Below are positions 20,687-64,000 of a DNA stretch of 64,000 bases, in pieces. A program made the position numbers and the translations under genes. Origin of the DNA: Spirochaetia bacterium (lineage in GTDB: Bacteria > Spirochaetota > Spirochaetia > UBA9216); NCBI GenBank assembly GCA_963675665.1, contig OY776510.1, positions 64,001 to 128,000 on the forward strand, read 5' to 3'. Numbering within the stretch: position 1 is the first letter of the stretch; each line of letters opens with the position of its first letter. The notes under the pieces were generated by a model. It saw nothing but the letters and a program-made list of their open reading frames with translations, was not told the DNA's origin and did no database searches.

Positions 20687-20796
<110 letters not shown>

Positions 20797-20921
20797 TAAT
20801 TATTCATAATTATATCTAACAGGGATAGAAACCGAACTCGACAGGTTGCATTTTCAAGGAGTTTTCTTAAACTCACGCAGCCTATTGGTTCAATTCCTTG
20901 AGAATTGATTAAGGGGAAATA

Positions 20922-23914
<2,993 letters not shown>

Positions 23915-24094
23915 ATATTACCTCTTAACCCTTCCCTGTACTTTTCATCTCCCTGTTACGGACGAAAAGTAATTAAAATGCCTTACCTAAAAAGCACTTC
24001 TTTTATATAAAAGAACTAATCTCTCAATGGAGATAATTTTGTGAAGTTTTCTATGAAAACTTCGAATTGATTTTCACGAAGTGGAAATCAATAA

Positions 24095-24168
24095 TGGAGG
24101 TATGGGGACTCGAACCCCAGACCTATGGCTTGCAAAGCCACCGCTCTAGCCAACTGAGCTATACCCCC
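24095..24168 (-). tRNA. tRNA-Ala(TGC) in the 16S-23S spacer
   Basis: GGGGGTATAGCTCAGTTGGCTAGAGCGGTGGCTT-TGC-AAGCCATAGGTCTGGGGTTCGAGTCCCCATACCTCCA, with the G3:U70 pair. Confidence 0.96.
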
Positions 24169-24454
24169 GGGAGAAAATCATAGATTTTCTCTAAAGTTTG
24201 GCTTCGCCAAACTTCCACCGAGCAAACCCTGTTGACTTTCTTTTAGAAGCAACTTTACAGTTACCTAAAAGAAACCTGACCCTTAAGGAAAGATTTCTTT
24301 TACATAATAAAAAAGGAAGAAGAGAGAGCGGAGAAACGGCAATCCGTTTCTCTGAAGTTTGACTTCGCCAAACTTCACCATGTTTGTCATACCCATACGG
24401 GCACTTAATCCGGAAATTAGCAGCTGTGCTGACCACTTTCCGTTCCTTTCTCAC

Positions 24455-25992
<1,538 letters not shown>

Positions 25993-26170
25993 ATATAGTC
26001 TAGCTAACCCTAAGATTAGCCAGTTTTATCCTAACAATTATTGAATCAGCAAGCTGATTCAATTTGAAGTTTCTTTCGAAACTTCAGACGGGTCATACAG
26101 TATTCTGCATATCTCAGCAGACTCACTGCAATCACCCAAACACAGGCTCTCTCCATCCCTATTTAATTTA

Positions 26171-47737: not shown

Positions 47738-49533
47738 CAGATAAGGTTCTCCATAATAAAACTGCGGCGGGCAGGCGTATTCTTACCCATGAAAAATTCC
47801 AGCGTATCGGGGATATCTTTCATTGTCTTAATGTTAACCTTAACCAGCCTCATATCTTCTCCAATAAACTGCCCGAATTCTTTGGGTGAAATCTCTCCAA
47901 GGCCTTTAAAGCGTGTAATCTCCGCTCCTGAAATGGAATCCGAAGCTTCATCCCGCTCCTTGTTGTTATAGCAGTACCGGGTCTCTTTCTTGTTTCTTAC
48001 CCGGAACAATGGTGTTTCAAGGATATATACATGCCCTGCGCTTACAAGTTCTTCAAAAAAACTTAAAAAGAAGGTCATCAGAAGATTCCTGATATGAAAC
48101 CCGTCGTAATCAGCATCTGTGGCGATTATCAGCCTGTTATAGCGCAGGTTCTCAACATCATTCTCAATACCCAGCGCCATCATCAGGTTGAAAAGCTCTT
48201 CATTCTTGTATATTGCAGCTTTTGTTTTACCGAAAACATTGAACGGCTTTCCCCGAAGGCTGAAAACCGCCTGGGAATAAACGTCACGAGCGGAGACAAT
48301 GGAACCCGATGCAGATTGACCCTCGGTAATAAAAATCATTGAGCTGTCGCCTTTTTTATCGCCGAGATGATATTTGCAGTCTTTAAGATTCGGAATTTTC
48401 AGCGCTACTTTCTTGGCGGCTTCGCGGGCTTCTTTCTTTACGGCATTAAGTTCCTTGCGCAGTTTTTCATTGCTGATTATCTTGTTCTCAAGTTTCTTTG
48501 CCGCTTCCTTGTTCTTGTGCAGGAAGTCGACAACGCCTGATTTAACCTCATTTACAAGCCAGCCCCGAATTTCCGTGTTGCCCAGCTTGTTCTTTGTCTG
48601 GCTTTCAAACACAGGGTTCTGAAGCTTGATGGCCACCGCACCGGCAAGTCCGTCGCGCGCATCTACACCTGAATAATTCTTTTTATAAAATTCGTTTACT
48701 CCCTTCAGAAACCCTTCGCGAAATGCGCTCTGATGGGTTCCTCCGTCTGAAGTATACTGGCCGTTAACAAAAGAGAAATAATTTTCCCCGTAGGTATTTG
48801 TATGTGCAAAAGCGAATTCCAGCTTATCACTTCGGTGATAGCCTATATCATAAATAGTAGTCTCGCCGACTTCGGAATCCAGCAGATCAAGCAGACCATT
48901 CTTTGATTCATACTTCTGCTTGTTAAGGTACAGCGTCAAACCGCTGTTCAGGTAGGCGTAGTTCCAGATCCGCTGATCGATAAATTCGAAATTGTAGCTG
49001 TATTCGCCGAAAATCTCCGGATCGGGAACAAACTCAACATAAGTGCCGTCGGCTTCCTTCTCTGTTTTGCCCTGCCGTTTTTTCTTTAAATTCCCACGTT
49101 CAAAAACAGCTTCAAAAAACTTGCCGTCGCGAAACGATACAACACGAAAATATTCCGATAATGCATTAACAGCCTTTGTGCCGACACCGTTCAGGCCGAC
49201 CGAAAACTGAAACACGTCGTCATTGTATTTGGCGCCGGTATTAATAACCGATACGCAGTCAATAACCTTGCCGAGGGGAATGCCGCGCCCGTAGTCACGA
49301 ATCTTGACCCGGCTGCCTTCAACATTTACGATAATCCTGGAACCGTTTCCCATTATGAATTCGTCAATTGAGTTGTCGATTACTTCTTTCAGAAGAACAT
49401 ATATTCCGTCGTCGAGATTTGTTCCGTCTCCGAGCCGGCCGATATACATACCTGTACGCAAACGGATATGCTCAAGCGAGCTTAGAGTCTTTATTTTACT
49501 TTCATCGTATGTTGTGTTCTTAGCTTTTGCCAT
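47737..49533 (-). CDS. parE: DNA topoisomerase IV subunit B
   Basis: EVIDNSIDE, DYGRGIP, GLNGVG, TEGQSA, LRGK, TDADYDG and RFKGLGE. Confidence 0.9.
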   Translation of the reverse strand: MAKAKNTTYDESKIKTLSSLEHIRLRTGMYIGRLGDGTNLDDGIYVLLKEVIDNSIDEFIMGNGSRIIVNVEGSRVKIRDYGRGIPLGKVIDCVSVINTGAKYNDDVFQFSVGLNGVGTKAVNALSEYFRVVSFRDGKFFEAVFERGNLKKKRQGKTEKEADGTYVEFVPDPEIFGEYSYNFEFIDQRIWNYAYLNSGLTLYLNKQKYESKNGLLDLLDSEVGETTIYDIGYHRSDKLEFAFAHTNTYGENYFSFVNGQYTSDGGTHQSAFREGFLKGVNEFYKKNYSGVDARDGLAGAVAIKLQNPVFESQTKNKLGNTEIRGWLVNEVKSGVVDFLHKNKEAAKKLENKIISNEKLRKELNAVKKEAREAAKKVALKIPNLKDCKYHLGDKKGDSSMIFITEGQSASGSIVSARDVYSQAVFSLRGKPFNVFGKTKAAIYKNEELFNLMMALGIENDVENLRYNRLIIATDADYDGFHIRNLLMTFFLSFFEELVSAGHVYILETPLFRVRNKKETRYCYNNKERDEASDSISGAEITRFKGLGEISPKEFGQFIGEDMRLVKVNIKTMKDIPDTLEFFMGKNTPARRSFIMENLI

Positions 49534-49668
49534 TGAGTATTTTAAATCTCCCCCAGTCTGATTACTATTTTATCACTTATCAGTCCGGGATTCAAGAATG
49601 AGATTTTAAAAGAATGAACAGAGATTTATAATATGGAGATCTCCAGGCTTTAAAATGTTTATTTCGTC

Positions 49669-50703
49669 CTATTGATCGATATACTCTTCGCTCAGGATAT
49701 TATAGCAAAGATATTCAGGGAATTTCTTTCTGAGGGAAGACACAAGCACCTTCGAATCCATATCGGAAAAGAACGGCCGGGTCGGATTGACCGTTATTGC
49801 AAGCGTATTGACCGAATCAAAGACCCTCAGGCTTATTCCTTTTTTCTCCATTTTACCCTGCAGACGTGAATTTAAAAACAGGCGAGTGCTGTCTTTAATA
49901 ATTACACTTAAATCCCGTCCCCGATCGCTGTTCAGAATCTGCTCTGCACGCTTATCGGTAAGCGCCCCCGACAGAACAACCGCCCTTACGGAGTTTTCCT
50001 TTCCCAGTCCGGAGATCGCCTCATCAGCATTGCCGGCTTGCAGAACACTGCCGTCGTCGGTTATACAGCCGCTTTTTTGAGATACAAATAAATCCCGGGC
50101 GATTTCCACAAGATCCGGATCATCTAGTTCCGGTACCTTTAATTTTGATACAGCCTCTTCAGTATGCCTGACTACATCGTCTTCGGTCATTCCGAGAACA
50201 GCGCCTGTGGAGAGTATACATGCATCCGAGATCAGCGGAACTGCAGAACTTCGCCTGTCCAGCGCTCCGTCGATTAAAACCAGATCGGACTGCCGTTCCA
50301 GCAAAGGTATTATTTTTAATAATCCGGCAACCGTGTTCACTCCGATCAACTCGGCCATGCCCCCGTTGGAACCGCTGGTATATACTTTTGTCTCTCCGAA
50401 AACCGTAAAAAGGCCTGTGCCGGTTTCGGATTTAATATCAATCACAGCCGGATTAATAAAGCGTTCGGCCGTTACAAAAAGTGTATTCGGCGGTACATGT
50501 ATACGTGGTTTTTCCAGCAGGGTTATTGCATCAACCGATTCCCCATCCCGCCCGAACGAGATGAGCGCCGGTTTAAGCCCTACGGTCCGGCACTCCGCAA
50601 TAAGTGTATTGAAGGTAACTGTTTTACCTGTATTTTTTGCAAGACCAATAACCGATAACCGTTTAATTTTCTTCTCAATAATTCTGTCAACTAATCTTGC
50701 CAC
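49669..50703 (-). CDS. kamB: KamB-like P-loop protein (putative lysine 5,6-aminomutase reactivase component)
   Basis: GLAKNTGKT, GRDGE..D..T...KP.I and LIDGALDR motifs, recalled from the protein found beside kamDE; last gene of the kam operon. Likely start GTG 50703. Confidence 0.6.
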   Translation of the reverse strand: MARLVDRIIEKKIKRLSVIGLAKNTGKTVTFNTLIAECRTVGLKPALISFGRDGESVDAITLLEKPRIHVPPNTLFVTAERFINPAVIDIKSETGTGLFTVFGETKVYTSGSNGGMAELIGVNTVAGLLKIIPLLERQSDLVLIDGALDRRSSAVPLISDACILSTGAVLGMTEDDVVRHTEEAVSKLKVPELDDPDLVEIARDLFVSQKSGCITDDGSVLQAGNADEAISGLGKENSVRAVVLSGALTDKRAEQILNSDRGRDLSVIIKDSTRLFLNSRLQGKMEKKGISLRVFDSVNTLAITVNPTRPFFSDMDSKVLVSSLRKKFPEYLCYNILSEEYIDQ

Positions 50704-50787
50704 TATCAATCCCGCAATGTAAAAATAAGCGGCGGGCCGGACGAAGCACAGCCCCCGCAGAGACATTTTATAATCTATTATATTGCA

Positions 50788-52230
50788 TTAAACCGATACT
50801 TTCTCTTTTTTCTTCGGATTCATGCACATCTTCTCGTCACCATACCATATTGCCCTTCCCGTGAAAGCATAGATAACCGCAATAATCGGTACAAAAAGGG
50901 CAAGATATACGAACGGAAAATACTGGGTAGTCGGTACCCCAAGCGCCCCGGTAAAAAATACACCGCAGAGACCCCACGGAACCATCGGTGAAAATACGGT
51001 ACCGGAATCTTCAAGTGTTCTTGAAAGAACATTGTTTCTCAGGTTCTGCTTCCTGTATTCAGGAATCATCATTCTTCCGGTAATTATAATTGCCATATAC
51101 TGGCTTGCTGTTGCAAGGTTAAGAAGAATACCTGAAACGACGGTTGTTGTAACAAGACCGCTTGGTTTTCTCAGCAGGACGGAAAGCTTGCCGAGGAAGA
51201 CTTCCAGCATTTTTGTTTTTTCCAGAATACCGCCAAAGGCAACACCGATAAATCCGAGTGAGACTGTCCACATCATGCCCTGAAGACCGCCCCTGCTGAC
51301 CAGTTTATCAACTACGGCAACACCGGTGTCTCCGGAGAATCCGTAATTCATAACATTTGTAATGGAAGTCAATGTGGCGCCCTGAAAGATCATTGCCAGA
51401 ATTGCCGCAATGATAGCCGAAATTATCATTGTCGGCAGCGAAGCCACTTTCTTGACGGCAAGAACAATAACCACTACAGGCGGGATAAGCAGCACAGGAT
51501 TAATAAAGTAATTTTCCTTGAGAGTAGTCAGAATGAGCCTAACCTGTGAGGTGTCTGCACTTCCCTTAACCTGAAAAGCTCCGAGTATTCCGTAAACTAC
51601 CAGTGCAAGAACAAAAGCAGGAACAGTTGTATACATCATGCTCTTAATATGGTCAAAAAGATCAGCTTCTCCTACTGCTGCAGCCAGGTTGGTTGAATCC
51701 GAAAGCGGCGACATTTTATCACCTATGATTGCTCCGCTTATAACAGCACCCGCCGTCATGGCAGGCGATACGCCAAGACCCATTCCGATACCCATCATGG
51801 CCACGCCTACGGTTCCGCCTGAAGTATAGCTGCTTCCGGTAGACATTGAAGTCAGGCCTACAATAACCGCGGCAGCTACCAGAAAATACGAAGGCTTAAG
51901 AATCAATAGTCCGTAATAGATAATTGTCTGAATTGTTCCCGAAGCAACCCAGGTTCCTATTACAACACCGATAATCATCAGTATAAGCATGGGGATCATT
52001 GCAAGATCCGCGCCGTATTGAATTGCATCCTGGATATCTTTCCACTTATATCCGGATCTCATAGCTACAATGGTTGCCACAATGATGTTTACAATCAAGG
52101 TAATATGTACGGGTATCCCTAACCACAGGACGGAGATGCCCATACTGGCAAACAGAAACAACAGAACGAATAAAACACTACCGAAACTTATTGCTTTCTT
52201 CCTTTCTTGATCTTTGATTTCGCTCATCAA
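50788..52230 (-). CDS. nhaC: NhaC-family secondary transporter (probable amino-acid uptake)
   Basis: TGSSYTS.GT.G, GA..GDKMSPLSDSTN, RGG and LSRTLED.GT...P..PW. Confidence 0.85.
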   Translation of the reverse strand: MMSEIKDQERKKAISFGSVLFVLLFLFASMGISVLWLGIPVHITLIVNIIVATIVAMRSGYKWKDIQDAIQYGADLAMIPMLILMIIGVVIGTWVASGTIQTIIYYGLLILKPSYFLVAAAVIVGLTSMSTGSSYTSGGTVGVAMMGIGMGLGVSPAMTAGAVISGAIIGDKMSPLSDSTNLAAAVGEADLFDHIKSMMYTTVPAFVLALVVYGILGAFQVKGSADTSQVRLILTTLKENYFINPVLLIPPVVVIVLAVKKVASLPTMIISAIIAAILAMIFQGATLTSITNVMNYGFSGDTGVAVVDKLVSRGGLQGMMWTVSLGFIGVAFGGILEKTKMLEVFLGKLSVLLRKPSGLVTTTVVSGILLNLATASQYMAIIITGRMMIPEYRKQNLRNNVLSRTLEDSGTVFSPMVPWGLCGVFFTGALGVPTTQYFPFVYLALFVPIIAVIYAFTGRAIWYGDEKMCMNPKKKEKVSV

Positions 52231-52246
52231 ATTCTCCTCTATCTCT

Positions 52247-53458
52247 TCAATCTAATAATATTTTTATGAGGTAGTCATATATCGTTTCAGCTGTTCGGGC
52301 AGCCGTATCAATATAGACAAACTCATCTGCGCTGTGAAAATTTTCACCCATCGGACCGAATACATAAGTAGGTAAATCAGCTCGTGTGCCGAGATAGTTG
52401 AAATCGCCAATGCTGGAAAAATAATCAATATTTGCAGCAATCCCGGTTACATCCTTTATGCTTTGCTTCAGGATTTTCGTGTACGGGTTGCTCTCTGATA
52501 CTGTATATGGAAGGAAACTGTCGGCCCCGGGGTTCGGAGCCTCCCTGAACCTGACTTTAACCGTCCCCTTTACCCCGGCATCTTTGGCAGCCTTCAGTAT
52601 TTCATCACGAACCGAATCCGGCGTTTCCCCTACAGTAATATGACGGAACACTGAAAAGACAGCTTCTTCCGATACGGAGCAGGCTGCCTGGCCGCCACCG
52701 GAAGAGCTTGTTATACAGGTTGATCCTGCGCCCAGCTTCGGGTCTTCTATTCCCTTCAGCTCTTTTAACGCCACGATTAATTTTGAGGCTTCATAAATCG
52801 CGCTGACCCCCTTTTCAGGCTCTGCAGCATGCGCGCTTCGCCCTTTTACCGTTACCGTGTAGCTGAAACCGCCCCGCGCACCGAGGCACAGACAGGGAAA
52901 AGGCACGCGACAGAACCCCGAGCTCGGTTCCGGAACAATGGCAACATCACAATTATCAATAATTCCGTCTACAATTGCTGCATTGGTACCAAGGCCGTAA
53001 GGGCCTTCTTCATCACTTACAAGCGTATATAAAATACTGCCGTTAAATTCTTTTACATTTTCTTTGAACGCTTCGATAGCCAGCATAATGGCGGCGCAAC
53101 CGCTTTTCATATCAAGCGCGCCCACCCCATAGAGCTTTCCATCCACAAACTCGGCCCCGTACGGATCTTTTGTCCAGCCCTCGCACAAATTGACAGTATC
53201 AAGATGCCCGTTAAGCAGAACTTTCGGGCCGTCGCTGCCGCCCTTCAGCTCTCCTACTATATTTTTCCCGTTAAATCCGGTTACTTTATCTTCCTTAAAT
53301 TCATGCACCCGTGCGGGAATACCACGTTCTTTAAACCATTTATACGCAAAGTCCATAATTCGTGATTCATGAAAATACGGACTTTCAATTTGTATAAGAT
53401 CAGAAGTCAGTTTCAGTATTTTTTCATCAATACCTTCTATTACTTTTTCTCCATTCAT
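52247..53458 (-). CDS. M20 (ArgE/DapE-like) metallo-amidohydrolase/deacylase
   Basis: NGHLDTV, GALDMKSG, SDEEG, PEPS and HSADE metal and catalytic residues. Confidence 0.88.
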   Translation of the reverse strand: MNGEKVIEGIDEKILKLTSDLIQIESPYFHESRIMDFAYKWFKERGIPARVHEFKEDKVTGFNGKNIVGELKGGSDGPKVLLNGHLDTVNLCEGWTKDPYGAEFVDGKLYGVGALDMKSGCAAIMLAIEAFKENVKEFNGSILYTLVSDEEGPYGLGTNAAIVDGIIDNCDVAIVPEPSSGFCRVPFPCLCLGARGGFSYTVTVKGRSAHAAEPEKGVSAIYEASKLIVALKELKGIEDPKLGAGSTCITSSSGGGQAACSVSEEAVFSVFRHITVGETPDSVRDEILKAAKDAGVKGTVKVRFREAPNPGADSFLPYTVSESNPYTKILKQSIKDVTGIAANIDYFSSIGDFNYLGTRADLPTYVFGPMGENFHSADEFVYIDTAARTAETIYDYLIKILLD

Positions 53459-53467
53459 TAATTCATC

Positions 53468-54502
53468 CTATGTATACAGTTTTTCGAACATTTCTCTTAT
53501 CACGGGATTTTCCCTTAACACGTTTAAAGCTACCTCCGCATGTCCTTTTGTGTACCCGTTACCGATAATCATCTCTATATCCTTTCCTACACCTTCCGCG
53601 CCGAGCGCAGCCTTGGTAAAACTTGTTGCCATGCTGAAGAAATAGATTAAACCGTCTTCCTTAACGGAAAGGATCGAGGCCATTTCAGTATTCGGGATAT
53701 TTACATTATTTATTACGATATCAGCCGGCTTGCCGTGATTTGCTTTAAACAGCTTCTCCATAACATCCACAGCCATAGCGGCATCTGCCTGTATGATAGC
53801 ATCGGCAAGCCCGGTCTTGCGTATCCGCTCGCAACCGGCTTCGGAATGCGACAGGCCTATAATGCGTCCGGTTACGCCGGCGTGTTTTCTGGCTTCATGA
53901 AGACATAAAAGACCCGACTTGCCGCCGGCGCCTATGATAAAAACAGTTTGCCCCGGCTGAACAAGTTTTGCCGTCTGCGCGGGAGCTCCCGCTACATCAA
54001 GAACAGCAAGCCCGAGCGTGTCTTCCATGTCTGACGGCAGTTTCGCGTAAATTCCGCTTTCGAACAGTATGGCCTGCCCGTCGATATCAACCTGATCTAT
54101 ATTCTTTTTAATTTTCCTGATTTTATCTATTTTGAGCGGCGTTAACGACAGGGACACAAGGGTTGCAATCCTGTCTCCGACCTTGAGACCGTCATCTATC
54201 CGTGCATCTCCGATCTTCACAACCTCGCCGATCAGCATGCCGCCCGATCCGGTTACCGGATTCTGCATTTTTCCGCGTTCGTTAACTATGGCAAGAATCT
54301 GTTCGGCGATCTTGTCCTCATCTCCATTCGCCGCGTTTTTCAATTGGGTAAAACTTGCCGAATCAATATTAAGAGTCTGAACCTTGATCAGAACCTCGTT
54401 ATCATAGATTTCCATTGAATTATCAATTTTAACTGCCGTTTGAGGAAGAACTCCCTCAGGTTTGATAACCCGGTGCAATCCATAGCTGTTTCCTTTTTTC
54501 AT
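53468..54502 (-). CDS. kdd: L-erythro-3,5-diaminohexanoate dehydrogenase
   Basis: YGLHRV..P.G.LPQ, LNIDSASF, GKMQNPVTGSGG, VLDVAGAP and FFSMATSF..AALGAEG. Confidence 0.93.
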   Translation of the reverse strand: MKKGNSYGLHRVIKPEGVLPQTAVKIDNSMEIYDNEVLIKVQTLNIDSASFTQLKNAANGDEDKIAEQILAIVNERGKMQNPVTGSGGMLIGEVVKIGDARIDDGLKVGDRIATLVSLSLTPLKIDKIRKIKKNIDQVDIDGQAILFESGIYAKLPSDMEDTLGLAVLDVAGAPAQTAKLVQPGQTVFIIGAGGKSGLLCLHEARKHAGVTGRIIGLSHSEAGCERIRKTGLADAIIQADAAMAVDVMEKLFKANHGKPADIVINNVNIPNTEMASILSVKEDGLIYFFSMATSFTKAALGAEGVGKDIEMIIGNGYTKGHAEVALNVLRENPVIREMFEKLYT

Positions 54503-54516
54503 TATTGTTTCTCCTT

Positions 54517-55335
54517 CTAAGATATTTTCAGTATTTTTCGTGCTTCATCCGGAGCGGCTATTTCACGGCCGAATTCTTTTGCCAGACGCGCAACCCGCTC
54601 AACAAGCTGGGCATTACTTTCAGCAAGAACTCCGTATGAATAATAAATATTGTCTTCAAACCCGACCCGGACATGACCGCCGAGCGGGATCGTGTGATAA
54701 ACCATAGCCAGCTGATGCCGTCCTATACCCGAAGCGGTCCAGGTTGCTCCCGGGGGCAGCATTGAAATCATAAGAAGTAAATGCTCTATTGTTGCCGGCA
54801 TTCCACCCTTCACTCCAAGAACAAAATTGAAATGCATATGTTTAAGGCTCAGCTCTCCACGACAGATATCAAGCGCATTTGCAACATGTCCGGAATCAAA
54901 ACATTCAAGCTCCGGCAGAATATTCAGAGTGGTCAGCCGGTGCGCAAAACTGCGGATCATCTCAGGAGTATTGATAAAGACATCGTTTTCTCCGAAATTT
55001 ATCGAACCGCAATCAAGGCTTACCATTTCAGGCTTCAGTTCCACAGGCTGCTGGCGCTCTTCATAAGACATATTCACCGCCCCTCCGGTCGAGGGCTGTA
55101 TTATCGCCCGGACACCTTTCTGCTTCATCAGGTCTATTGTCTCCCTGAAGACTTCAATATCCTGAGTCGGCAGTCCTTTATCATCTCTTACATGGAGATG
55201 AATAACTGAAGCCCCGGCTTTTTCCGCATCCAGTGCGGCAACCGCAAGCTCTTCAGGTGTTATCGGAAGATTCTTGTTATCGACTTTTCTGACCTCAGCT
55301 CCGCATATGGCTGCAGTGATTATTAGTTTTTCCAT
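54517..55335 (-). CDS. kce: 3-keto-5-aminohexanoate cleavage enzyme (BKACE)
   Basis: LIITAAICGAE, HLHVRD zinc motif, QPSTGG and RVGFEDN. Confidence 0.92.
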   Translation of the reverse strand: MEKLIITAAICGAEVRKVDNKNLPITPEELAVAALDAEKAGASVIHLHVRDDKGLPTQDIEVFRETIDLMKQKGVRAIIQPSTGGAVNMSYEERQQPVELKPEMVSLDCGSINFGENDVFINTPEMIRSFAHRLTTLNILPELECFDSGHVANALDICRGELSLKHMHFNFVLGVKGGMPATIEHLLLMISMLPPGATWTASGIGRHQLAMVYHTIPLGGHVRVGFEDNIYYSYGVLAESNAQLVERVARLAKEFGREIAAPDEARKILKIS

Positions 55336-55337
55336 TT

Positions 55338-56075
55338 TTACATCCTTATGTTCTGTACAATATATGAAGCTACATCCGGCGGAAGAGATCCCGGCCCAAA
55401 CCCTGCGTCAAATCCCAGTTCCAGCGCCAATTCATGACTCAGCCTTGGTCCTCCGACAATCGTAACGAATTTATCTCTCAGTTCTTCCGCTTCCAGAAGC
55501 TCAACAAACTGAGTCAGGTTTTTGATGTGCACATCCTTTTGAGTGACGATCTGGGAGATCAGAATTGCATCGGCCTTTTTTTCAACGGCAAATTTAATCA
55601 GTTCTTCGTTAGAAACCTGGCTGCCGAGATTATATGCATCTATTTCCGGATACCGCTCAAGGCCGTATTCACCGGCATACCCTTTCATATTCATTATCGC
55701 ATCCAGCCCAACCGTATGAGCATCTGAACCGGTGCAGGCGCCTACGACTACTACCTTGCGACCAATATTTTTCTTTATGTAAGCATTGATCTCGTAAAAA
55801 CTCATTACGGGGGTTTCAACTTTCGGAATATGAATTGCGGTTGCATCTATGGAATGAACACAGGAGCCGTATACAACAAAAAAAGTTAATCCGCTGCCGA
55901 CTGTTTTCATATCCGCTACATCAATATTTTCCATTCCCATTTTTGCGGCCAGCTGCCTTGCGGCTTCACGTCCTTCAGGACTTCTTTCAACCGGAAGGCT
56001 GAAACTGAGCTGAACTTTGCCGTCGTTCAGGGTATCTCCGTATGCCCGAAGGTTCTTTTTATCTACACCTTTCAT
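55338..56075 (-). CDS. kamE: Lysine 5,6-aminomutase beta subunit (B12-binding)
   Basis: YGDTLNDGKVQLSF, DAHTVG (DxHxxG), NMKG PLP-lysine and SQIVTQKD. Confidence 0.94.
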   Translation of the reverse strand: MKGVDKKNLRAYGDTLNDGKVQLSFSLPVERSPEGREAARQLAAKMGMENIDVADMKTVGSGLTFFVVYGSCVHSIDATAIHIPKVETPVMSFYEINAYIKKNIGRKVVVVGACTGSDAHTVGLDAIMNMKGYAGEYGLERYPEIDAYNLGSQVSNEELIKFAVEKKADAILISQIVTQKDVHIKNLTQFVELLEAEELRDKFVTIVGGPRLSHELALELGFDAGFGPGSLPPDVASYIVQNIRM

Positions 56076-57646
56076 TTTATTCCAAGTTCCTTTTTAAAGA
56101 TTTCCAAGAATGGATTCAGATAGTCTTTATCTTTTTCGATTACACCGGCGGCACCCTTGCCCCCGTTAAGCGGCCTTGAAATATTTGCAAAAACGCCCCG
56201 GGATATGGCATCCATCAGGCCTTTTTCCGATATTTCTTCAAGCATATCCGTTGTTTCCTGTAAAACCTGATCTGCCCTTTTTTGAATCCGGCCGTCCTTC
56301 TTGAATTGGATTTCTTCACTTAAATGTCTTGCATTATTAAATACATAATTTGCGTTTTCGATAGAAAGGGCCCTGTCCTGAAGAAACGGTGTGTGAATAG
56401 CTTCCGTAAGCATGCCGAGAAGCTGAATGCTTTGCCCGGTCAGCACCGACGCCAGATTGAACATGCAATCCATCAGATGTCCCTTGAATATATTTCCTGT
56501 CATGTGCTTTGTCGGAGGCATGTATTTGATCGGGGCTTCGGGAAAAAGCTGCCGGACAAGCTGAGCCTGAGCCAATTCCATCAGAAATCCGTCTTCAATA
56601 TCCGGGTTTATCTCGAAAGCATGACCCAATCCCATCTGATCAGGTTTTAATCCGGATCGATATGCCAGTTCTTCATTGATAAACTGGGAAACAACTACGG
56701 TATGTGCTTCCTCAACCGCATCGGCGGTAGTCAGGTAATTATCCTCGCCGGTATTTATTATAATTCCGGCAAAAGCGTTAATCATTCTGGAAAAATACTG
56801 ATCGATAAATGTCCGCTTCATATTGATATCTCTGAACAGAATGCCGTACATTGCATCGTTGAGCATCATATCAAGCCGCTCAACAGCACCCATTGCGGAT
56901 ATTTCAGGCATTGCCAGCCCTGAGGCATAATTCACTAGCCTTACATATTTTCCGGTTTCAAGTGCAACTTCATCCAGGGCTTTTCGCATAATGCGAAAAT
57001 TCTCCTGAGTAGCATAAGTTCCCCCGAAACCTTCCGTTGTAGCCCCATACGGAACATAATCCAGCAGACTCTGCGCTGTGCTTCGGATAACCGCAATAAT
57101 ATCCGCTCCGCTTCGGGCTGCCGACTGGGCCTGAAAAACATCTTCGTATATATTACCTGTTGCAACTATGACATACAGCCAGGGTTCAGGCCCGGACGGT
57201 CTCACACTGAGCTCTTCCTCTCTTTTTTTCCGCTGTTCTTCAATTCTCTGTACGGTTTTTGCTGTATAACTTTCAAGCGCCTTTCTTACTTCTGCTTCCG
57301 AATGCTGCGGCAACCCGGTGAGTCGAATCTCGTTCTTGTCAACCATTTCGGCAATTTCCCGGGGCGTTTTCCCTGTTTCAATAACAGCGTTACCCAGCCA
57401 GTAATATATTCCGCGGCCTAAAGCTCCTGATTCGTTGACACTATCAACTACGATATTCGGCAGGGGTGTTCCGCCTGAATCAACCCCGTCGATACCTAGA
57501 AACCTTGCAACGGTTCTCTCCACCGAGGTTGTAGTATTTTTATCAATATGAACCTGAATATCATCAGCTATGGAACGGGAAGCACTGCGGCAGCGTGCCA
57601 CAAGCGCCTGATCAACTATTAATTTATCCTGTAAATTTCTTCCCAT
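56072..57646 (-). CDS. kamD: Lysine 5,6-aminomutase alpha subunit
   Basis: YVIVATGNIYED, AVIRSTAQSLLDYVPYGAT.EGFGGT, INTGEDNY and KYMPPTKHMTG. Confidence 0.95.
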   Translation of the reverse strand: MGRNLQDKLIVDQALVARCRSASRSIADDIQVHIDKNTTTSVERTVARFLGIDGVDSGGTPLPNIVVDSVNESGALGRGIYYWLGNAVIETGKTPREIAEMVDKNEIRLTGLPQHSEAEVRKALESYTAKTVQRIEEQRKKREEELSVRPSGPEPWLYVIVATGNIYEDVFQAQSAARSGADIIAVIRSTAQSLLDYVPYGATTEGFGGTYATQENFRIMRKALDEVALETGKYVRLVNYASGLAMPEISAMGAVERLDMMLNDAMYGILFRDINMKRTFIDQYFSRMINAFAGIIINTGEDNYLTTADAVEEAHTVVVSQFINEELAYRSGLKPDQMGLGHAFEINPDIEDGFLMELAQAQLVRQLFPEAPIKYMPPTKHMTGNIFKGHLMDCMFNLASVLTGQSIQLLGMLTEAIHTPFLQDRALSIENANYVFNNARHLSEEIQFKKDGRIQKRADQVLQETTDMLEEISEKGLMDAISRGVFANISRPLNGGKGAAGVIEKDKDYLNPFLEIFKKELGIK

Positions 57647-57683
57647 CTGCGAATCCTCTCATAACACTATTATAAACTTATGA

Positions 57684-57700
57684 TGCAACAACTGTGCCAA
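57684..57700 (-). promoter_or_regulatory. sigma54 promoter of the kamD operon
   Basis: TTGGCACAGTTGTTGCA matches the TGGCAC-N5-TTGCA consensus. Confidence 0.88.
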
Positions 57701-57773
57701 AAAAGTTTCTCCCGATATAAGCATACTTTTGTTGTATATTGGCCGAAACGGATGTATAATCCGTATAAACAGC

Positions 57774-57830
57774 TGATGCAAATAAGATTCAATGATTCGT
57801 TTTAGAATCGTTTGATTCATAAATGAATCG
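57774..57830. promoter_or_regulatory. Three tandem palindromic activator sites (TGATTC-N6-GAATC)
   Basis: TGATGC-N6-GATTCA at 57774, and TGATTC-N6-GAATCG at 57793 and 57813; about 20-bp period; 75-130 bp from the sigma54 promoter. Confidence 0.65.
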
Positions 57831-59574
57831 TTTTATTGAGGAGATCATTATTTTAAATTCAATTTTGAATTCGCTTGAAGAAGGAATACTGGTTGCAGAT
57901 CCTGAGTTAAGAATTATTTTCATGAACCCCAAGGCCGAAACGATTCTTAAACTGAATACCGACAAGCATACCGGCCGGGTTTTATGGGAAACTGATCTCG
58001 CCCCCGAGATACTCCTTATCCTGACATCAAAAAAAACGGGATACACCCACAGGCTTGATGTCGGAGGCGAATCCATTCTTGTAAAAGGACTGCCTTTTTC
58101 CGATAAAACAGAAGCAAAAGGTTCGATCTGGATAATACAAAGAACCTCTGATGCACCGGAAACAGACTCGCTCATCTGCAAAACAACCGAACAGGAACTG
58201 AACGCAATTATTGAATCGGTCTCCGACGGCATCTACGTAACGGACGGAAAAGGAATAACCCTGCGTGTTAATTCAGCTTTTCAACAGATTACGGGAATTA
58301 AAGAAAATGACGTTAAGGGTCTTCATGTTGAAGATCTGATAAAAATGGACGTCTTCAGGAAATCAGCTACAGTTTCCGTTCTTGCAGAAAAAAGACAGGT
58401 CAGTATGGTAGAGAACCTTAAGATAGGAAAAGAAGTTCTTCTTACCGGCACGCCTGTATTTGATAACAATAATGAGATCTTCAGGGTTGTAACCACATTA
58501 AGGGATATTGAAAGCCTCAATGAACTCAAGAAAAAGCTTGCCGTCTCCCAGGAAAAAACAAAACTGTATGAGAAGGAACTTTTTCAGCTAAGACTTCAGC
58601 AGATGGATATGGAGAATGTCGTAATTAACTCCCGCCAGATGCATGAAGCGGTACAGACCGCCATGCGCCTTGGAGAAGTTAATTCAAATGTGCTGATTTC
58701 CGGAGAATCCGGGGTAGGAAAGGATATTATTGCCAGAATTATACATAAAACCGGGCTCGGAGAGGACGCGCCGCTGATTACAAGCAATTGCGGGGCTATT
58801 CCGGAGTCATTAATCGAGTCTGAGCTCTTCGGATACGAAGGAGGCGCCTTTACCGGTGCGAAAAAAGAAGGCAGCCCCGGACTGTTTGAACTGGCCCGCG
58901 GAGGCACCCTTTTCCTGGACGAGATTGGAGAACTGCCGATCAGTTTTCAGTCGAAGTTCCTCAGGGCTATCCAGGAAAAGGAAATAAGACGAGTTGGGGG
59001 CAACAAGCCCATCAAACTGGACTTCAGGCTTATTGCCGCTACCAACCGTGATCTTGAAGAAATGGTCAGCAGGAAACTTTTTCGCAGCGACCTGTTTTAC
59101 CGGCTGAATGTTGTTCCTCTTAACATCCCGCCGTTACGGGAACGCAGGGAAAGTATCGTAATTTTTGTTTATAAATTCCTCGAAGTATATAACCGCCAGT
59201 TCAACAGGGTTGTTCAGATCAGTCCGGAAGCGCTTCAGATCCTCGAGGATTACGACTGGCCCGGAAACGTACGTGAACTGAAAAACCTGATTGAGCGGCT
59301 GGTGGTTCTGGTTGTCGGAAACGTTATTGAAGCAAACGATATTCCGAGATATATCAGAAGCGTACATTCGGAAGAAACAGAAAACCAGATCTCACTGCAT
59401 GGAATTATGCCGCTGAACAGGGCCATTGAGGAACTCGAATATCAACTGCTGACAAAAACTTACAAAAAATACTCATCAACCAGGGAAACCGCCAAAATAC
59501 TCGGTATCAGCCAGTCTCAGGTGTCGAGAAAACTGACCAAATACAATATCTATAACGGCCCCGAAGAAAACTGA
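57823..59574 (+). CDS. PAS-PAS sigma54-dependent activator
   Basis: Two PAS repeats, GESGVGKD, ELFGYEGGAFTGA, FLDEIGE, WPGNVREL and a C-terminal HTH. Confidence 0.92.
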   Translation: MNRFIEEIIILNSILNSLEEGILVADPELRIIFMNPKAETILKLNTDKHTGRVLWETDLAPEILLILTSKKTGYTHRLDVGGESILVKGLPFSDKTEAKGSIWIIQRTSDAPETDSLICKTTEQELNAIIESVSDGIYVTDGKGITLRVNSAFQQITGIKENDVKGLHVEDLIKMDVFRKSATVSVLAEKRQVSMVENLKIGKEVLLTGTPVFDNNNEIFRVVTTLRDIESLNELKKKLAVSQEKTKLYEKELFQLRLQQMDMENVVINSRQMHEAVQTAMRLGEVNSNVLISGESGVGKDIIARIIHKTGLGEDAPLITSNCGAIPESLIESELFGYEGGAFTGAKKEGSPGLFELARGGTLFLDEIGELPISFQSKFLRAIQEKEIRRVGGNKPIKLDFRLIAATNRDLEEMVSRKLFRSDLFYRLNVVPLNIPPLRERRESIVIFVYKFLEVYNRQFNRVVQISPEALQILEDYDWPGNVRELKNLIERLVVLVVGNVIEANDIPRYIRSVHSEETENQISLHGIMPLNRAIEELEYQLLTKTYKKYSSTRETAKILGISQSQVSRKLTKYNIYNGPEEN

Positions 59575-59649
59575 GATCGAATTGATCTGACGGCTGCCGC
59601 AATCTTTCACTTTTTGCTTCAAACGCGCCTCCGTTATCCCTTTTGATAA

Positions 59650-59665
59650 TGGCACACTTATTGCA
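59650..59665 (+). promoter_or_regulatory. sigma54 promoter of the CoA-transferase/kal operon
   Basis: TGGCACACTTATTGCA consensus match 33 bp upstream of the ATG. Confidence 0.88.
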
Positions 59666-59698
59666 TATATTAAATTAACTTTTAGGAGGAACAGAAAT

Positions 59699-60718
59699 AT
59701 GGATACAAAATATGATGACTGCGGTGTCCTGGATTCCGGTACGGGACCTGTTTTTATGGATCCCGATCCGGACAAAGCCCGATTATTTTTTAGAAATAAA
59801 TCAAAAAAAATGTCTGTTAAACTTACATCCATGGAAGAAGCCGTTCGGGCAAATGTTCATGACGGGGATTACCTTGTGGTTGGAGGATTCGGTTCCAACC
59901 GAACTCCGTTCCATGCTGTTCACGAGATTGTCCGTCAAAAAAGAAAACATCTGAAATTTGCCGGACACACGTCCACTCACGATATGCAGGTTCTGGCTGC
60001 CGGCAATACCTTTGATTGCATCGATATAGCTTATATCATCGGGCTGGAAGCCCGCGGACTTTCGAAATGCAGCCGCAAACTCTTCGAGGAAAACCGTGTA
60101 CAGTTCAATGAAGATACGAACTACGGTCTTGCCATGAGGTTTAAAGCGGCAGCCATGGGTATTCCGTACATACCGACACGTAATGTTATGGGAACAGACA
60201 CATTCAGGAACGGATGCGGGAAGATCATAACCTGTCCGTTTACAGGAAAGAAACTTGTTGCAAAACCTGCCATTTATCCCGATGTTTCAGTCCTTCATGT
60301 ACATGAAGCAGACAAATACGGCAATGCACGTTTCAGGGGCATATCTGTTTCCGATATAGATGTAGCCAATTGCACAAAGAGGCTGATCATAACTGCCGAA
60401 CGTATTATTGACCATGAGGAATTCCGCAACAACCCGGATTCTACAATGATTCCGTACTATCTGGTAGACGCCGTCGTTTCTTCCCCATGGGGAGCATACC
60501 CGGGAACCATGCCTTATGAATATTTTTCCGATGAAGATCATCTCGGCGAATGGCTTTCAGCTGAAAAAGACCCCGAAACATTCAGGAAATTTCTCGACAA
60601 AAACATTTACAGCTGCAAAAATCATTTCGAATATATAGAAAAAAACGGCGGACTCGAAAAAATGGCGCATCTTCACGAGCTTGAGATGCTTACTTACAAG
60701 GAGGACAGCAATGGCTGA
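59699..60718 (+). CDS. CoA transferase subunit A (GctA/CatI-like)
   Basis: V.DGD...GGF...R.P, RFKAAAMGIPYIP, CPFTG, HVHEAD.YGN and PWGAYP. Confidence 0.85.
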   Translation: MDTKYDDCGVLDSGTGPVFMDPDPDKARLFFRNKSKKMSVKLTSMEEAVRANVHDGDYLVVGGFGSNRTPFHAVHEIVRQKRKHLKFAGHTSTHDMQVLAAGNTFDCIDIAYIIGLEARGLSKCSRKLFEENRVQFNEDTNYGLAMRFKAAAMGIPYIPTRNVMGTDTFRNGCGKIITCPFTGKKLVAKPAIYPDVSVLHVHEADKYGNARFRGISVSDIDVANCTKRLIITAERIIDHEEFRNNPDSTMIPYYLVDAVVSSPWGAYPGTMPYEYFSDEDHLGEWLSAEKDPETFRKFLDKNIYSCKNHFEYIEKNGGLEKMAHLHELEMLTYKEDSNG

Positions 60719-61478
60719 TTACAATACAATGGAACTGATGATTGTCGCCGCATCCAGAGAGCTGGAAAACGGCGCAACCGTCGGTGTAGGTACCGGGGCC
60801 CCCTGCGCCGCCGCCATGCTTGCCCAGAAAACGCATGCGCCGGATCTGGTCATCCTTTTTGAAGCGGGCGGAATCAGCCCCCAACTGCCTGAAATGCCCA
60901 TAAGCGTCGGCGACAGCCGGACTTTCTACCGCGCAATCAAGGCAGGCGGCATGTGCGATATCATGGATGCATGCGCCAGGGGTCTGGTTGATTATACCTT
61001 TCTCGGAGGTGCGCAGATAGACATGTACGGCAACCTTAATTCAACAGTTATCGGCGACTATGAAAAACCGAAGGTCAGACTTCCCGGAAGCGGAGGCGCA
61101 AACGATTTTGCTTCATTCTGCTGGCGGACAATGGTAATTACGCCCCAGGACAAACGGCGGTTTGTTGAAAAACTTGATTTTCTGACCACTCCGGGATGGA
61201 TTACCGGGGGTAATTCAAGAACAGAGGCAGGTCTTCCGGAAGATACAGGCCCATATAAAATAATCACTGATATGGCAATTATGGGTTTTGACGAAGAATC
61301 AAAGCGTATGACCGTTCTGAGCCTCAATCCGGGAAGCACAAAAGAAATGGTGCAGGAAAACTGCGGCTTCGAGCTTCTCTGGGCAAAAAACATCACTGAA
61401 ACGCCTCCTCCGACAAAAGAGGAGCTCAGGATATTAAGAGAACAGGTTGACCCAAAGAAATATATTATAGGCCGGTAA
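60711..61478 (+). CDS. CoA transferase subunit B (GctB/CatJ-like)
   Basis: ILFEAG (catalytic Glu position), [26 protein letters not shown] and DFLTTPG; likely start ATG 60711. Confidence 0.85.
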
Positions 61479-61500
61479 AATAAAAAGGAGAAATACATCA

Positions 61501-61890
61501 ATGGGAAATATAAACTCAACATTAAGACTGAGAATGTCGCATAAAGACGCACATTACGGAGGGAGCCTTATCGACGGGGCCCATATGGTTCATCTGTTCG
61601 GAGATCTGGCCACCGAGCTTCTGATAATTCTTGACGGCGACGAAGGCCTCTTTCTTCGATACGATGAGGTTGAATTCCTGGCCCCGGTATATGCGGGAGA
61701 CTACATAGAAGTATACGGGGAAATAACCGGGATCGGAAACACATCCAGAACAATGGAATTCACGGCAAAGAAGGTTGTTGCGGCACGACCTGACATCAGC
61801 CCGTCAGCCGCTGATGCACTTGACGAACCGATAACCGTAGTAAGGGCTAAAGGTGTCTGCGTAACACCGAAAGAATCAAAGCGGAAATAA
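61501..61890 (+). CDS. kal: 3-aminobutyryl-CoA ammonia-lyase (hotdog fold)
   Basis: RLRMS..DAHYGG.L.DGA...LFGD.ATEL.I..DGDEGLF..Y..VEFLAPV.AGD. Confidence 0.9.
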
Positions 61891-61989: not shown

Positions 61990-64000
61990 TCACCCCTGTT
62001 TAAGCGGGTAACCGGCTTTGTCAAGCTCAGCTACAATCCTGTCTTCAGCAGATCTCAGAAAATCAGGAGTCAGTGTCTTGTCCCGATCAAGCAGCCAGGA
62101 ACGCAGTGTTACTGTTTTATTTGTTTCAGACAGCGGGTAAACATCGACAATTTTTGTATCAACAAGTTCCTTCATCTTCACTTTTCCAAGGACAGCCAGA
62201 ACATCGGCAACCGGAGCAGCGGTATCGGCAACAACAGTACAATCGAAGGTTGAGCCGGGAAATTTCGGAAGAGGCTGATATCTGGTCTTGTCACTGACAG
62301 GCCTGTCCATGAAATCAGTAATATCAAGTACCGCCATAACAAGATTGCCCTTGATTTTAAAGTTTCTGCACATCAGCGGATGAACTGTTCCGATAAAACC
62401 GCAGTTTTTGCCCATAACCATTATATCAAGGAACTCGTTCGGATGCCGGCCGACCCAGTCGGAAGCAACAAGAGGGTTTTTAAATTTTGCAGTCGGGGGT
62501 TGAATCCGGGCATTAAGACTCAGATTCTCAAGCAAGTCTCCCATCAGGTTCACGACTTCCATAAAAGGCGAACCGTTCCTGTCATGATAGATGATTCCAA
62601 GCTGGTGCCGTTCCTCACTGAAATTTTCATCTGATTCCAGATAGCTTCTGCCTAGTTCGAACAGTCTGAATCTGGAATGAAATTTCTGGTTGAACGCTGC
62701 TTTCTCTATAAGCGACGGCACAAGAGAAGGCCGCATTCTGTCAGTCTCCGGGCTGAGCGCATTTGCAAGAACAAGCCCCTCATTCAGAACATTCCATCCG
62801 GCCTGTTCCAGCAGTTTTGCCCCGGTGAGCGGATAACTGTAAATTTCAAGCGCCCTGCCCCGATAAACCATAAAGTCCATGATACTGCGTTCCATTGTCC
62901 TGGCGGAGCTCAGGGATACAGCGGTAACTTCATTGTGAGGAGCTACAGGAACAAGTTTGTCATAACCGTAAATTCTGCCGATATCTTCTATCAGATCAGC
63001 ATCAACCTCAACATCTTTTGTTGAACGGTATGAAGGAACAGTAACTTTCAGAACTTTATCGCCCGGTCCTATCACGTAATCAAGCGATTCAAGTATACGT
63101 ATTACTTCGTCCTGCTCCAGTTTCGTTCCAAGAATGGAATTTACCCGGGCAAGGGTTAAATCAATAACCAGCGGCGGAGAAAGTTCCAGACGATCAGACA
63201 CAAGCGGCCCGACGACTTTCGCCTGCGGACAGCTTTCCTGCAACAGTTCCAGAATCCTCAGCGCCGTACGTTCAAGCTGATGACTGTCCAGCGACTTCTC
63301 GTAACGCTGAGACGCATCGGTCCTCAATCCCAGTCTGGTTGAGGTATGGCGGATCCGTTCAGGTTTCCAGTTGGCTACTTCTATAAAAACACGGCTTGTA
63401 TCATCTTTAACGCTTGACGTGAGCCCGCCCATAATACCGCCGATTGATGAAGGCCCTTCAGCATCGCACACCATCGTGTCCGAAGGAATCATTTTCCGCT
63501 CAACTTCATCAAGGGTTATAAAAATTGAATCTTCACCGTTTTCGCGGACGATTATCTTTCCCCCGCAGATTGTATCACGATCAAAAATATGGTTCGGCAT
63601 ACCCTGTTCAAGCATCACGTAGTTTGAAATATCAACTATATTATTGATAGGCCTCATCCCGCAGGCTGTAAGGCGCTGCTGCATCCAGACGGGGCTCGGC
63701 TTAATCTCAACATTATCAACACTCAAGCCCAGGAATCCCAGGCATGCGCAGTCTTCCTGCACCTCAATTGTTACGGGAGGAACCGAATCGTTATAAAACG
63801 CGCGCATTTTCTCAATCCATGCATCGTCAAAAGGTTTCGCAAGCGGCTTTCCGAACGCGGCGGCAAACTCGCGCGCCATACCGTAATGCCCCCAGAGGTC
63901 GGGGCGGTGAGTAATTGATTTATTATCAATATCAAGCAGAACATCGTGCTTGATCTGCATCAGCTGTGCCAGTGTAACGCCCACAGCCGCGTCGGACGGA
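61990..64000 (-). CDS. pheT: Phenylalanine-tRNA ligase beta subunit, 5' end outside the window
   Basis: ITHRPDLWG..G.ARE, RPINNIVDISNYVMLE.G.P.H.FD, TDASQRYEK, DLIED.GRIYGY and the C-terminal FDX-ACB domain. Confidence 0.93.
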   Translation of the reverse strand, partial: PSDAAVGVTLAQLMQIKHDVLLDIDNKSITHRPDLWGHYGMAREFAAAFGKPLAKPFDDAWIEKMRAFYNDSVPPVTIEVQEDCACLGFLGLSVDNVEIKPSPVWMQQRLTACGMRPINNIVDISNYVMLEQGMPNHIFDRDTICGGKIIVRENGEDSIFITLDEVERKMIPSDTMVCDAEGPSSIGGIMGGLTSSVKDDTSRVFIEVANWKPERIRHTSTRLGLRTDASQRYEKSLDSHQLERTALRILELLQESCPQAKVVGPLVSDRLELSPPLVIDLTLARVNSILGTKLEQDEVIRILESLDYVIGPGDKVLKVTVPSYRSTKDVEVDADLIEDIGRIYGYDKLVPVAPHNEVTAVSLSSARTMERSIMDFMVYRGRALEIYSYPLTGAKLLEQAGWNVLNEGLVLANALSPETDRMRPSLVPSLIEKAAFNQKFHSRFRLFELGRSYLESDENFSEERHQLGIIYHDRNGSPFMEVVNLMGDLLENLSLNARIQPPTAKFKNPLVASDWVGRHPNEFLDIMVMGKNCGFIGTVHPLMCRNFKIKGNLVMAVLDITDFMDRPVSDKTRYQPLPKFPGSTFDCTVVADTAAPVADVLAVLGKVKMKELVDTKIVDVYPLSETNKTVTLRSWLLDRDKTLTPDFLRSAEDRIVAELDKAGYPLKQG

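Follow-up and report, generated by a model that had tools for sequence, protein, structure and literature searches.

The window analysed here is a 64,000 nt stretch from a Spirochaetia bacterium (lineage UBA9216; assembly GCA_963675665.1, contig OY776510.1, positions 64,001-128,000), and its positions 49669-61890 are occupied by a beta-lysine degradation cluster in which an M20-family deacylase and an NhaC-family carrier stand among the pathway genes. The cluster consists of two divergent operons. On the minus strand the order is kamD-kamE-kce-kdd-M20-nhaC-kamB, the seven genes being spaced by -4 to 21 bases, and on the plus strand a sigma-54-dependent activator is followed by two CoA-transferase subunits and kal (Table 1). 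Gene identities were assigned from NCBIfam scores relative to the curated cut-offs, together with Pfam domains. All of the genes named in the original prediction are present, the pathway genes lie where it had placed them, and these exceed their cut-offs. Both lysine 5,6-aminomutase subunits are above equivalog level, KamD being an alpha subunit of the TIM-barrel type, which places the pair within KamDE. The carrier passes the NhaC model and stays below the ArcD model (362 bits against 650). A thiolase and AtoD/AtoA are located approximately 2 kb beyond the end of the window. KamC, the ATPase partner of KamB, was not found in the genome: its best match scored 184 against 300 and fell on MutS-like genes, leaving KamB as the one subunit of a two-subunit reactivase, and those parts of related, kamA-containing spirochaete clusters that were inspected showed no KamC either. 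Judged by its gene content, the cluster is a real module, predicted to lead from beta-lysine to crotonyl-CoA.

Table 1. Genes and predicted promoters of the beta-lysine cluster, in window coordinates, with profile scores given against cut-offs
Feature	Position	Strand	Evidence
kamB, 5,6-aminomutase reactivase subunit	49669-50766	-	NF052386 259 vs 210
NhaC-family carrier, proposed importer of the M20 substrate	50788-52230	-	TIGR00931 448 vs 370
M20A (DapE/ArgE-like) metallo-deacylase, proposed feeder enzyme	52247-53458	-	Pfam Peptidase_M20 and M20_dimer; no NCBIfam cut-off reached
kdd, L-erythro-3,5-diaminohexanoate dehydrogenase	53468-54502	-	NF052381 276 vs 200
kce, 3-keto-5-aminohexanoate cleavage enzyme	54517-55335	-	NF052387 398 vs 382; Pfam BKACE
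kamE, lysine 5,6-aminomutase beta subunit (B12-binding)	55338-56075	-	NF052385 391 vs 280; Pfam OAM_dimer and B12-binding
kamD, lysine 5,6-aminomutase alpha subunit	56072-57646	-	NF052384 888 vs 600; Pfam Lys-AminoMut_A, E 2.7e-262
Predicted sigma-54 promoter (-24/-12) of the kamD operon	57684-57699	-	TGGCACAGTTGTTGCA, 0 mismatches to TGGCACN5TTGCW, 38 bases 5' of the kamD start
Sigma-54-dependent activator (PAS, AAA+, HTH), divergent from kamD	57823-59574	+	Sigma54_activat, E 2.5e-65; PAS; HTH_50
Predicted sigma-54 promoter of the CoA-transferase/kal operon	59650-59665	+	TGGCACACTTATTGCA, 0 mismatches, 34 bases 5' of the start codon
CoA-transferase subunit A-like	59699-60718	+	Pfam CoA_trans, E 6.6e-29; no equivalog cut-off reached
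CoA-transferase subunit B-like	60681-61478	+	Pfam CoA_trans, E 1.1e-28
kal, 3-aminobutyryl-CoA ammonia-lyase	61501-61890	+	NF052388 180 vs 160

In the pathway as proposed, KamDE with KamB would convert (3S)-beta-lysine to 3,5-diaminohexanoate, Kdd would turn this into 3-keto-5-aminohexanoate, Kce would yield 3-aminobutyryl-CoA and acetoacetate, and Kal would release crotonyl-CoA and ammonia. The CoA-transferase of the divergent operon, the nearby thiolase and AtoDA would accompany these steps. Ahead of them would stand a feeder pair, in which NhaC brings in an N-acylated compound of the lysine/beta-lysine family, from which M20 cleaves the acyl group. An AAA+ activator with a Sigma54_activat domain, together with a zero-mismatch site directly upstream of each operon, marks the two operons as a sigma-54 regulon. 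Strict sites number 17 in the whole genome, and sites with up to two mismatches show no excess in the window (23 found against 26.9 expected). The activator is PrdR-like, at 446 bits and under the cut-off of 795.

The canonical lysine 2,3-aminomutase gene, kamA, is absent from this genome, which is assembled as a single N-free contig of 5,150,563 bases. Profile searching bore out the earlier statement that neither the cluster nor the window holds kamA, and the whole-genome search for KamA/AblA that had been suggested also returned nothing at cut-off, the best TIGR03820 score being 286-287 bits against 525.4. With a relative's canonical KamA as the query, tblastn recovered two KamA-family paralogs only (40% and 28% identity) and no pseudogene piece; TIGR03820 finds two KamA-family genes in the genome, at 286 and 115 bits. 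AblB is absent from the genome as well. A contig carrying a second strain label is approximately 98% identical and collinear over 49533-61890, so the nhaC-kamB junction without kamA is not an assembly accident. A KamA-family region (115-141 bits) is also found in a 762-residue protein (genome 806354-808639) that has no Pfam hit for the whole protein; its gene adjoins a NeuB-family gene, and counterparts of approximately 720-820 residues occur in several relatives.

KamD is over its cut-off in nine of 61 genomes of the same class, the window genome included, and the other eight all have canonical KamA, in seven cases on the contig of KamD. The gene orders among these relatives differ. Locus L009 has kce-kdd-M20-nhaC-kamA-kamB and genome G008 has kamD-kamE-kce-kdd-M20-kamA-kamB, while the window and its closest relative, L008 of genome G012, share kdd-M20-nhaC-kamB with proteins that are 53-86% identical. 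The kamA of G012 lies on a different contig in an unrelated neighbourhood, for whose surroundings no syntenic counterpart was found in the window genome. A congener (G004) carries another, more distant cluster, kce-kdd-kamA-kamB-kamD-kamE, which lacks M20 and encodes proteins with 28-62% identity to their window counterparts; the site of that cluster is taken in the window genome by two giant open reading frames of 1547 and 1809 residues (186689-197042; L096 1276-11361). Because of these gene orders, the window type of cluster looks horizontally acquired, and kamA, whose former place just ahead of kamB is shown by L009 and G008, looks to have been lost from it before the window and L008 split. 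Housekeeping genes flank the cluster on both sides, as would fit an insertion: the genes for topoisomerase IV subunits A and B (45818-49533) are directly downstream of kamB on the same strand, and pheT (61990-63984) is on the other side.

Decay was examined by counting lineage-specific substitutions between the window and L008 in eight cluster proteins, with G008 or L009 as outgroup. Window-specific substitutions ranged from 13 to 23 per protein and L008-specific ones from 9 to 35. Five of the eight proteins have changed less in the window than in L008, KamE and NhaC have changed more, and the outgroups disagree on M20. The kamA-less cluster is thus not visibly decaying, and appears to evolve no faster than that of L008, whose genome has kamA elsewhere. 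A marine metagenome contains pieces of the cluster with 96-98% identity, and the window itself may derive from the run that matches best. The locus is an intact beta-lysine fermentation locus, and the loss of kamA from a complete genome is unusual and well documented.

Two further observations concern KamD and KamA within the class. In G010 (C4:2215368-2216898) KamD is matched by two pieces that overlap (model positions 1-173 and 164-510), possibly through a frameshift or sequencing error. Seven other Spirochaetia (G015, G017, G018, G028, G046, G053 and G054) have KamA/AblA scores of 751-776 bits, far above the fermentative ones, with no canonical KamD and no M20; G017 and G053 give only a weak match to the KamD model, of approximately 148 bits. 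These seven might make beta-lysine for another purpose, for example as an osmolyte.

The M20 protein scores 201 against 218 for the ArgE/DapE subfamily, 152 against 321 for YgeY, 103 against 298 for ArgE, 139 against 381 for the best DapE equivalog (NF006399) and 132 against 289 for the DapE subfamily model, and the ESM Atlas offers generic M20/DapE labels only. Across 28 orthologs from several phyla the mean column identity is 68%, and H85, D87, D116, E150, E151, E177, H210 and H375 do not vary at all and line up with the motifs of DapE. The protein thereby has the make-up of an M20A enzyme, with dinuclear metal ligands (two His, Asp, two Glu), the catalytic Asp/Glu and the His of the dimerisation domain, residues whose roles are taken from PMC10699109. 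It shares with DapE and ArgE the fold family, metal ligands, catalytic Asp/Glu, oxyanion His and the Arg for the proximal carboxylate. Unlike them it is far below the DapE and ArgE equivalog cut-offs and has a catabolic gene context, not one of lysine biosynthesis. Of the Haemophilus influenzae DapE residues, Arg178 and Asn245 are not kept, A194 and C260/S261 being aligned there. Anaerobes of halophilic or alkaliphilic habit supply most of the named M20 orthologs.

The genome collection contains at least 560 relatives of the M20 protein, and neighbourhoods were taken from the best 80 loci, in 78 genomes. Counts over these genomes lack phylogenetic independence, and metagenome-assembled genomes (MAGs) make up most of the set; with that limit, KamA and KamD occur together in 52, KamD only in eight, KamA only in 12 and neither in six, so that one or both are found in 72 of the 78 and canonical KamA in 64. 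Among the 61 Spirochaetia, M20 is found in four genomes, all of them KamD-positive, and in none of the 52 that are KamD-negative. The family is thus tied to the beta-lysine enzymes in its genomic distribution, and the genomes mostly contain kamA. Lysine or butyrate pathway genes are near M20 in approximately 16 of the 80 loci, and the loci outside the contexts given here have housekeeping neighbours. In a quick tree, the lysine-embedded M20 proteins all fall within one starred clade of 29 rows, which includes alkaliphilic Clostridia.

Three kinds of carrier accompany the M20 gene. NhaC follows it in seven of the 80 loci, from Spirochaetota and Halanaerobiales, with carrier identities of 72-86%; an AGCS carrier adjoins it in approximately 11, mostly together with a second M20-like gene; and in five loci of Synergistota and Atribacterota kamA comes directly before M20, often with an SSS carrier after it. 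In at least two of the latter (L070 8478-12657 and L073 8641-12834) kamA, M20 and, where present, the SSS carrier form tight operons with genes overlapping or 11 bases apart, and further loci of this kind are L071 and L025 (213-2733). The pairing of M20 with a carrier spans three carrier families and at least six phyla, and this conservation argues for a coupled function of import and hydrolysis. We infer that NhaC transports the M20 substrate.

Clusters that link M20 to the whole pathway were found both with and without kamA. The complete Halanaerobiaceae genome G113 has kdd-kamB-kamC-kamD-kamE-nhaC-kal-kce-atoD-atoA-nhaC-kamA-thl-M20, and in three other members of the family that possess KamD, kamA is at a distance of 5-7 kb. 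Among the KamD-only genomes, three MAGs (G063, G070 and G095) show no pieces of kamA. The operon of G070 and G095 runs M20-nhaC-hbd-crt-atoD-thl-atoA-kamB-kamD-kamE-kal-kce-kdd without kamA; in G070 a class-III aminotransferase gene is placed between kce and kdd, and in G095, where M20 is found at the end of another contig, it is presumed to head the operon. In the operon of a Halanaerobium MAG (L092 4687-5934) the class-III aminotransferase between kce and kdd is accompanied by a corrinoid adenosyltransferase after kdd.

The five tested Synergistota and Atribacterota genomes with kamA-M20 operons contain no KamD, Kdd or AblB over the cut-offs, and the AblB search gave weak GNAT hits (20-29 bits) in three of the five. 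Two other accounts of these KamA-only genomes were considered and dropped. An alternative route through BKACE has a BKACE gene in just one of the five, and lysine auxotrophy as the reason for the operons gains no support, LysA being over the cut-off in three.

The best explanation of the window locus, which we hold tentatively and at somewhat less than even chances, is a beta-lysine pathway under predicted sigma-54 control that has lost KamA and uses M20 and NhaC as a feeder module. Since no other input to the pathway is visible in the genome, beta-lysine freed from an imported acyl derivative would be the likeliest product of M20 here, a possibility that we place somewhat below an even one. 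Beta-lysine is the only metabolite common to KamA and KamDE, which favours the same product. Further points in favour are the presence of KamA and/or KamD in 72 of the 78 M20 genomes, a cluster without visible decay, and the halophilic, alkaliphilic and marine provenance given above. An M20 that makes beta-lysine explains both the KamA-only operons and the KamDE-only case of the window, whereas an M20 that makes alpha-lysine would leave the window pathway without an entry and the KamA-only operons yielding beta-lysine without a known use. In the KamA-only genomes the beta-lysine released by M20 would be converted to L-lysine by KamA working in reverse, the KamA reaction being reversible. Extended in this way, the proposal that M20A and a carrier (NhaC, SSS or AGCS) form a catabolic entry for N-acylated beta-lysine, foremost N-epsilon-acetyl-beta-lysine, with reverse KamA in Synergistota and Atribacterota, is unlikely. 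The identity of the acyl group is also something we infer: to our knowledge N-epsilon-acetyl-beta-lysine is the only abundant natural candidate substrate, and that it is specifically the derivative imported here is quite unlikely. M20 with its carrier is best read as a conserved, so far unannotated putative feeder module of beta-lysine metabolism.

Several observations, beyond the dependence among genomes and the many MAGs already mentioned, weigh against a beta-lysine-releasing M20. In most lineages the gene sits in kamA-containing operons, and it adjoins kamA much more frequently than it occurs in clusters without kamA: besides the five loci with direct adjacency, kamA is directly beside it in G008, and G010 has the same genes within 1.2 kb. 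An M20 that adjoins kamA fits an alpha-lysine product equally well. Four of the KamD-only MAGs do contain fragments of kamA, as pieces at contig ends (G069 and G104) or N-terminal pieces (G139 and G150); the other three candidates (G063, G070 and G095) are likewise MAGs, and the window genome is the only complete kamA-less case. As a general design, the earlier idea that uptake and deacetylation replace KamA fails, as the same M20 is found in kamA-containing operons (L009, G008 and G113). The chemistry of the family points the same way. The best-aligned and closest solved relatives are DapE enzymes, and Arg258 of H. influenzae DapE, which holds the carboxylate adjoining the scissile nitrogen (PMC5919655; PMC4012986), aligns to the invariant R272 of M20. 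According to PMC10699109, N-alpha-acyl amino acids are the substrates of M20A aminoacylases, and those epsilon-lysine acylases that have been characterised are amidohydrolases of the YtcJ-like type, with another fold. Homology thus does not favour an N-epsilon-acetyl substrate, which would be unusual. The neighbours of M20 in other lineages are a further difficulty. A module of NhaC, M20 and Amidohydro_3 with no lysine gene beside it accounts for 26 of the 80 loci, mostly from Clostridia; M20 adjoins diaminopimelate (DAP) epimerase (L025) or LD-carboxypeptidase (L086) in Atribacterota; and in Tissierellia it adjoins SleB/YpeB in three loci, with glutamate racemase too in L063. The Atribacterota and Tissierellia neighbours suggest substrates of the murein-peptide or DAP type. 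Some M20 enzymes do act on N-substituted beta-amino acids, beta-alanine synthase being an example.

The alternative that survives best, although we consider it somewhat unlikely, is that M20, as an accessory of lysine fermentation in general, frees L-lysine from an imported N-alpha-acyl-lysine or lysine dipeptide, with the KamA step taken over by a paralog or the pathway recently orphaned. The preference of M20A enzymes for N-alpha-acyl substrates, the conserved Arg for the proximal carboxylate, the adjacency to kamA in Synergistota, Atribacterota and G008, the shared operon in G113 and L009 and the frequency of canonical KamA among the M20 genomes all speak for it. So does the better of the KamA-family paralogs, a 363-residue protein (genome 2,584,505-2,585,593; TIGR00238 249 against 199). 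It retains CxxxCxxC and the residues aligned to Arg134, Asp293 and Asp330 of PDB 2A5H, which we take to bind lysine, and to Lys337, presumably the lysine that holds pyridoxal phosphate. A co-regulated kamA elsewhere, with induction by L-lysine, had been named as grounds for giving up the original prediction; the canonical gene is lacking, and a KamA-family paralog with all of the lysine-binding residues exists, without the strict sigma-54 motif TGGCA[CT]N5TTGC[AT] in the 400 bases upstream. Against a fermentative role for this paralog, its score is far below the KamA cut-off and it lacks most of the C-terminal domain, LAM_C matching at model positions 4-31 of 127 only. It also overlaps, and is translationally coupled to, a gene for an HD and NUDIX fusion protein (G000:C1:2584505-2586900). 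Similar short paralogs (290-303 bits) are found in the KamD-less relatives G002, G003 and G009 and coexist with canonical KamA in the KamD-positive G004, G008 and G010, so they are not the fermentative enzyme there. A GenX/EpmA-like gene (genome 5142760-5143728; 264 against a cut-off of 287) suggests instead that the paralog and this gene may serve a beta-lysylation of the elongation factor P (EF-P) type, which we regard as a lead. The EF-P-type aminomutase of E. coli yields the (R) isomer. A recently orphaned pathway sits poorly with cluster proteins that change no faster than those of the kamA-bearing sister, and an L-lysine-releasing M20 would leave the KamA-only genomes making beta-lysine without a known consumer.

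It is improbable that M20 is a murein-peptide amidase acting on gamma-D-Glu-L-Lys or gamma-D-Glu-meso-DAP, so that cell-wall debris is fed into lysine fermentation. Both compounds are chemically near N-succinyl-DAP, which agrees with the DapE enzymes as nearest solved relatives, and the neighbours in Atribacterota and Tissierellia are of the expected kind. The Amidohydro_3 partner fits as well, since that family includes N-acyl-D-amino-acid deacylases. However, the cell-wall neighbours are found in few of the 80 loci, the linked NhaC, AGCS and SSS carriers are of amino-acid type and not peptide permeases, an alpha-lysine or DAP product could not enter KamDE here without KamA, and the KamA-only operons would be left unexplained. 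Equally improbable is uptake by NhaC of free beta-lysine, or of lysine, that has leaked from neighbouring cells, with M20 in a side role apart from pathway entry, or a cluster that does not function in this strain. In favour are the amino-acid carriers among NhaC-family members, the ArcD score and the missing KamC; against are the pairing of M20 with three carrier families, genes that are intact in two strains and not evolving faster, and the same lack of KamC in the inspected parts of related clusters with kamA.

Lysine fermentation is a textbook pathway based on B12 and radical-SAM enzymes, and in guts, sediments and digesters it supplies butyrate and ammonia. The window cluster resembles that of Clostridium and Fusobacterium in that KamD, KamE, KamB, Kdd, Kce and Kal are over their equivalog cut-offs, with thiolase and AtoDA nearby. 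It is unlike that pathway, which has KamA and a butyryl-CoA:acetoacetate CoA-transferase, in the lack of KamA and KamC, the placement of M20 and NhaC between kdd and kamB, the sigma-54 control and the divergent type of CoA-transferase. [quoted passage not shown] N-epsilon-acetyl-beta-lysine is an osmolyte of methanogens, made by AblA/AblB and with little turnover in the producer, according to PMC1224877. In the literature covered, mostly titles and abstracts from outside subscription journals, no acetyl-beta-lysine deacetylase or anaerobic catabolic route was found, nor any role for M20 or NhaC in lysine fermentation. We know of no characterised deacetylase for acetyl-beta-lysine. The catabolism of ectoine follows the logic proposed here, in that cells take up a compatible solute which their neighbours have released, deacylate it and feed on it. 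It involves unrelated enzyme families and an unrelated solute, and the route here would be anaerobic and B12-dependent.

A number of other features were recorded around the cluster and its relatives. The Clostridial module is often longer than three genes, as a BTAD-domain protein follows the YtcJ-like Amidohydro_3 protein of 522 residues in 24 loci; examples of the four-gene form are L069 (8526-14100) and L048 (2635-8500), and C. subterminale is included. Lysine riboswitches and other RNA elements were sought around NhaC and M20 in eight Clostridial loci, the window and four lysine-cluster loci, and T-box and SAM elements alone turned up. The T-box of L048 has a specifier loop read as UCC, making it Ser-specific, and precedes an open reading frame of 426 residues; none of the remaining elements adjoins the module. 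As a possible activator site, the palindrome ACGGAT-N5-ATCCGT upstream of kamD was considered and rejected, the loosest pattern giving four copies in the genome, none of them close to the KamA paralog or within the leader of the CoA-transferase operon. A terminator scan gave no convincing operon end. An rRNA operon is located on the minus strand at 20687-25994 of the window, with 5S, 23S, a tRNA and 16S.

Two features of this system are apparently undescribed. One is a highly conserved M20A deacylase embedded in, or co-occurring with, beta-lysine genes in at least six phyla, whose orthologs are annotated merely as 'succinyl-diaminopimelate desuccinylase' or 'M20 peptidase'. The other is a complete genome that keeps the whole downstream pathway under selection without its entry enzyme. 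If the M20 acts on an acyl-alpha-lysine or a murein peptide, it would be an unrecognised feeder step of lysine fermentation, and a widespread misannotation would be corrected. If M20 is instead the entry for N-acylated beta-lysine, it would constitute the first route by which anaerobes consume that solute, and activity on acetyl-beta-lysine would reveal the recycling of a major methanogen osmolyte in saline anoxic habitats.

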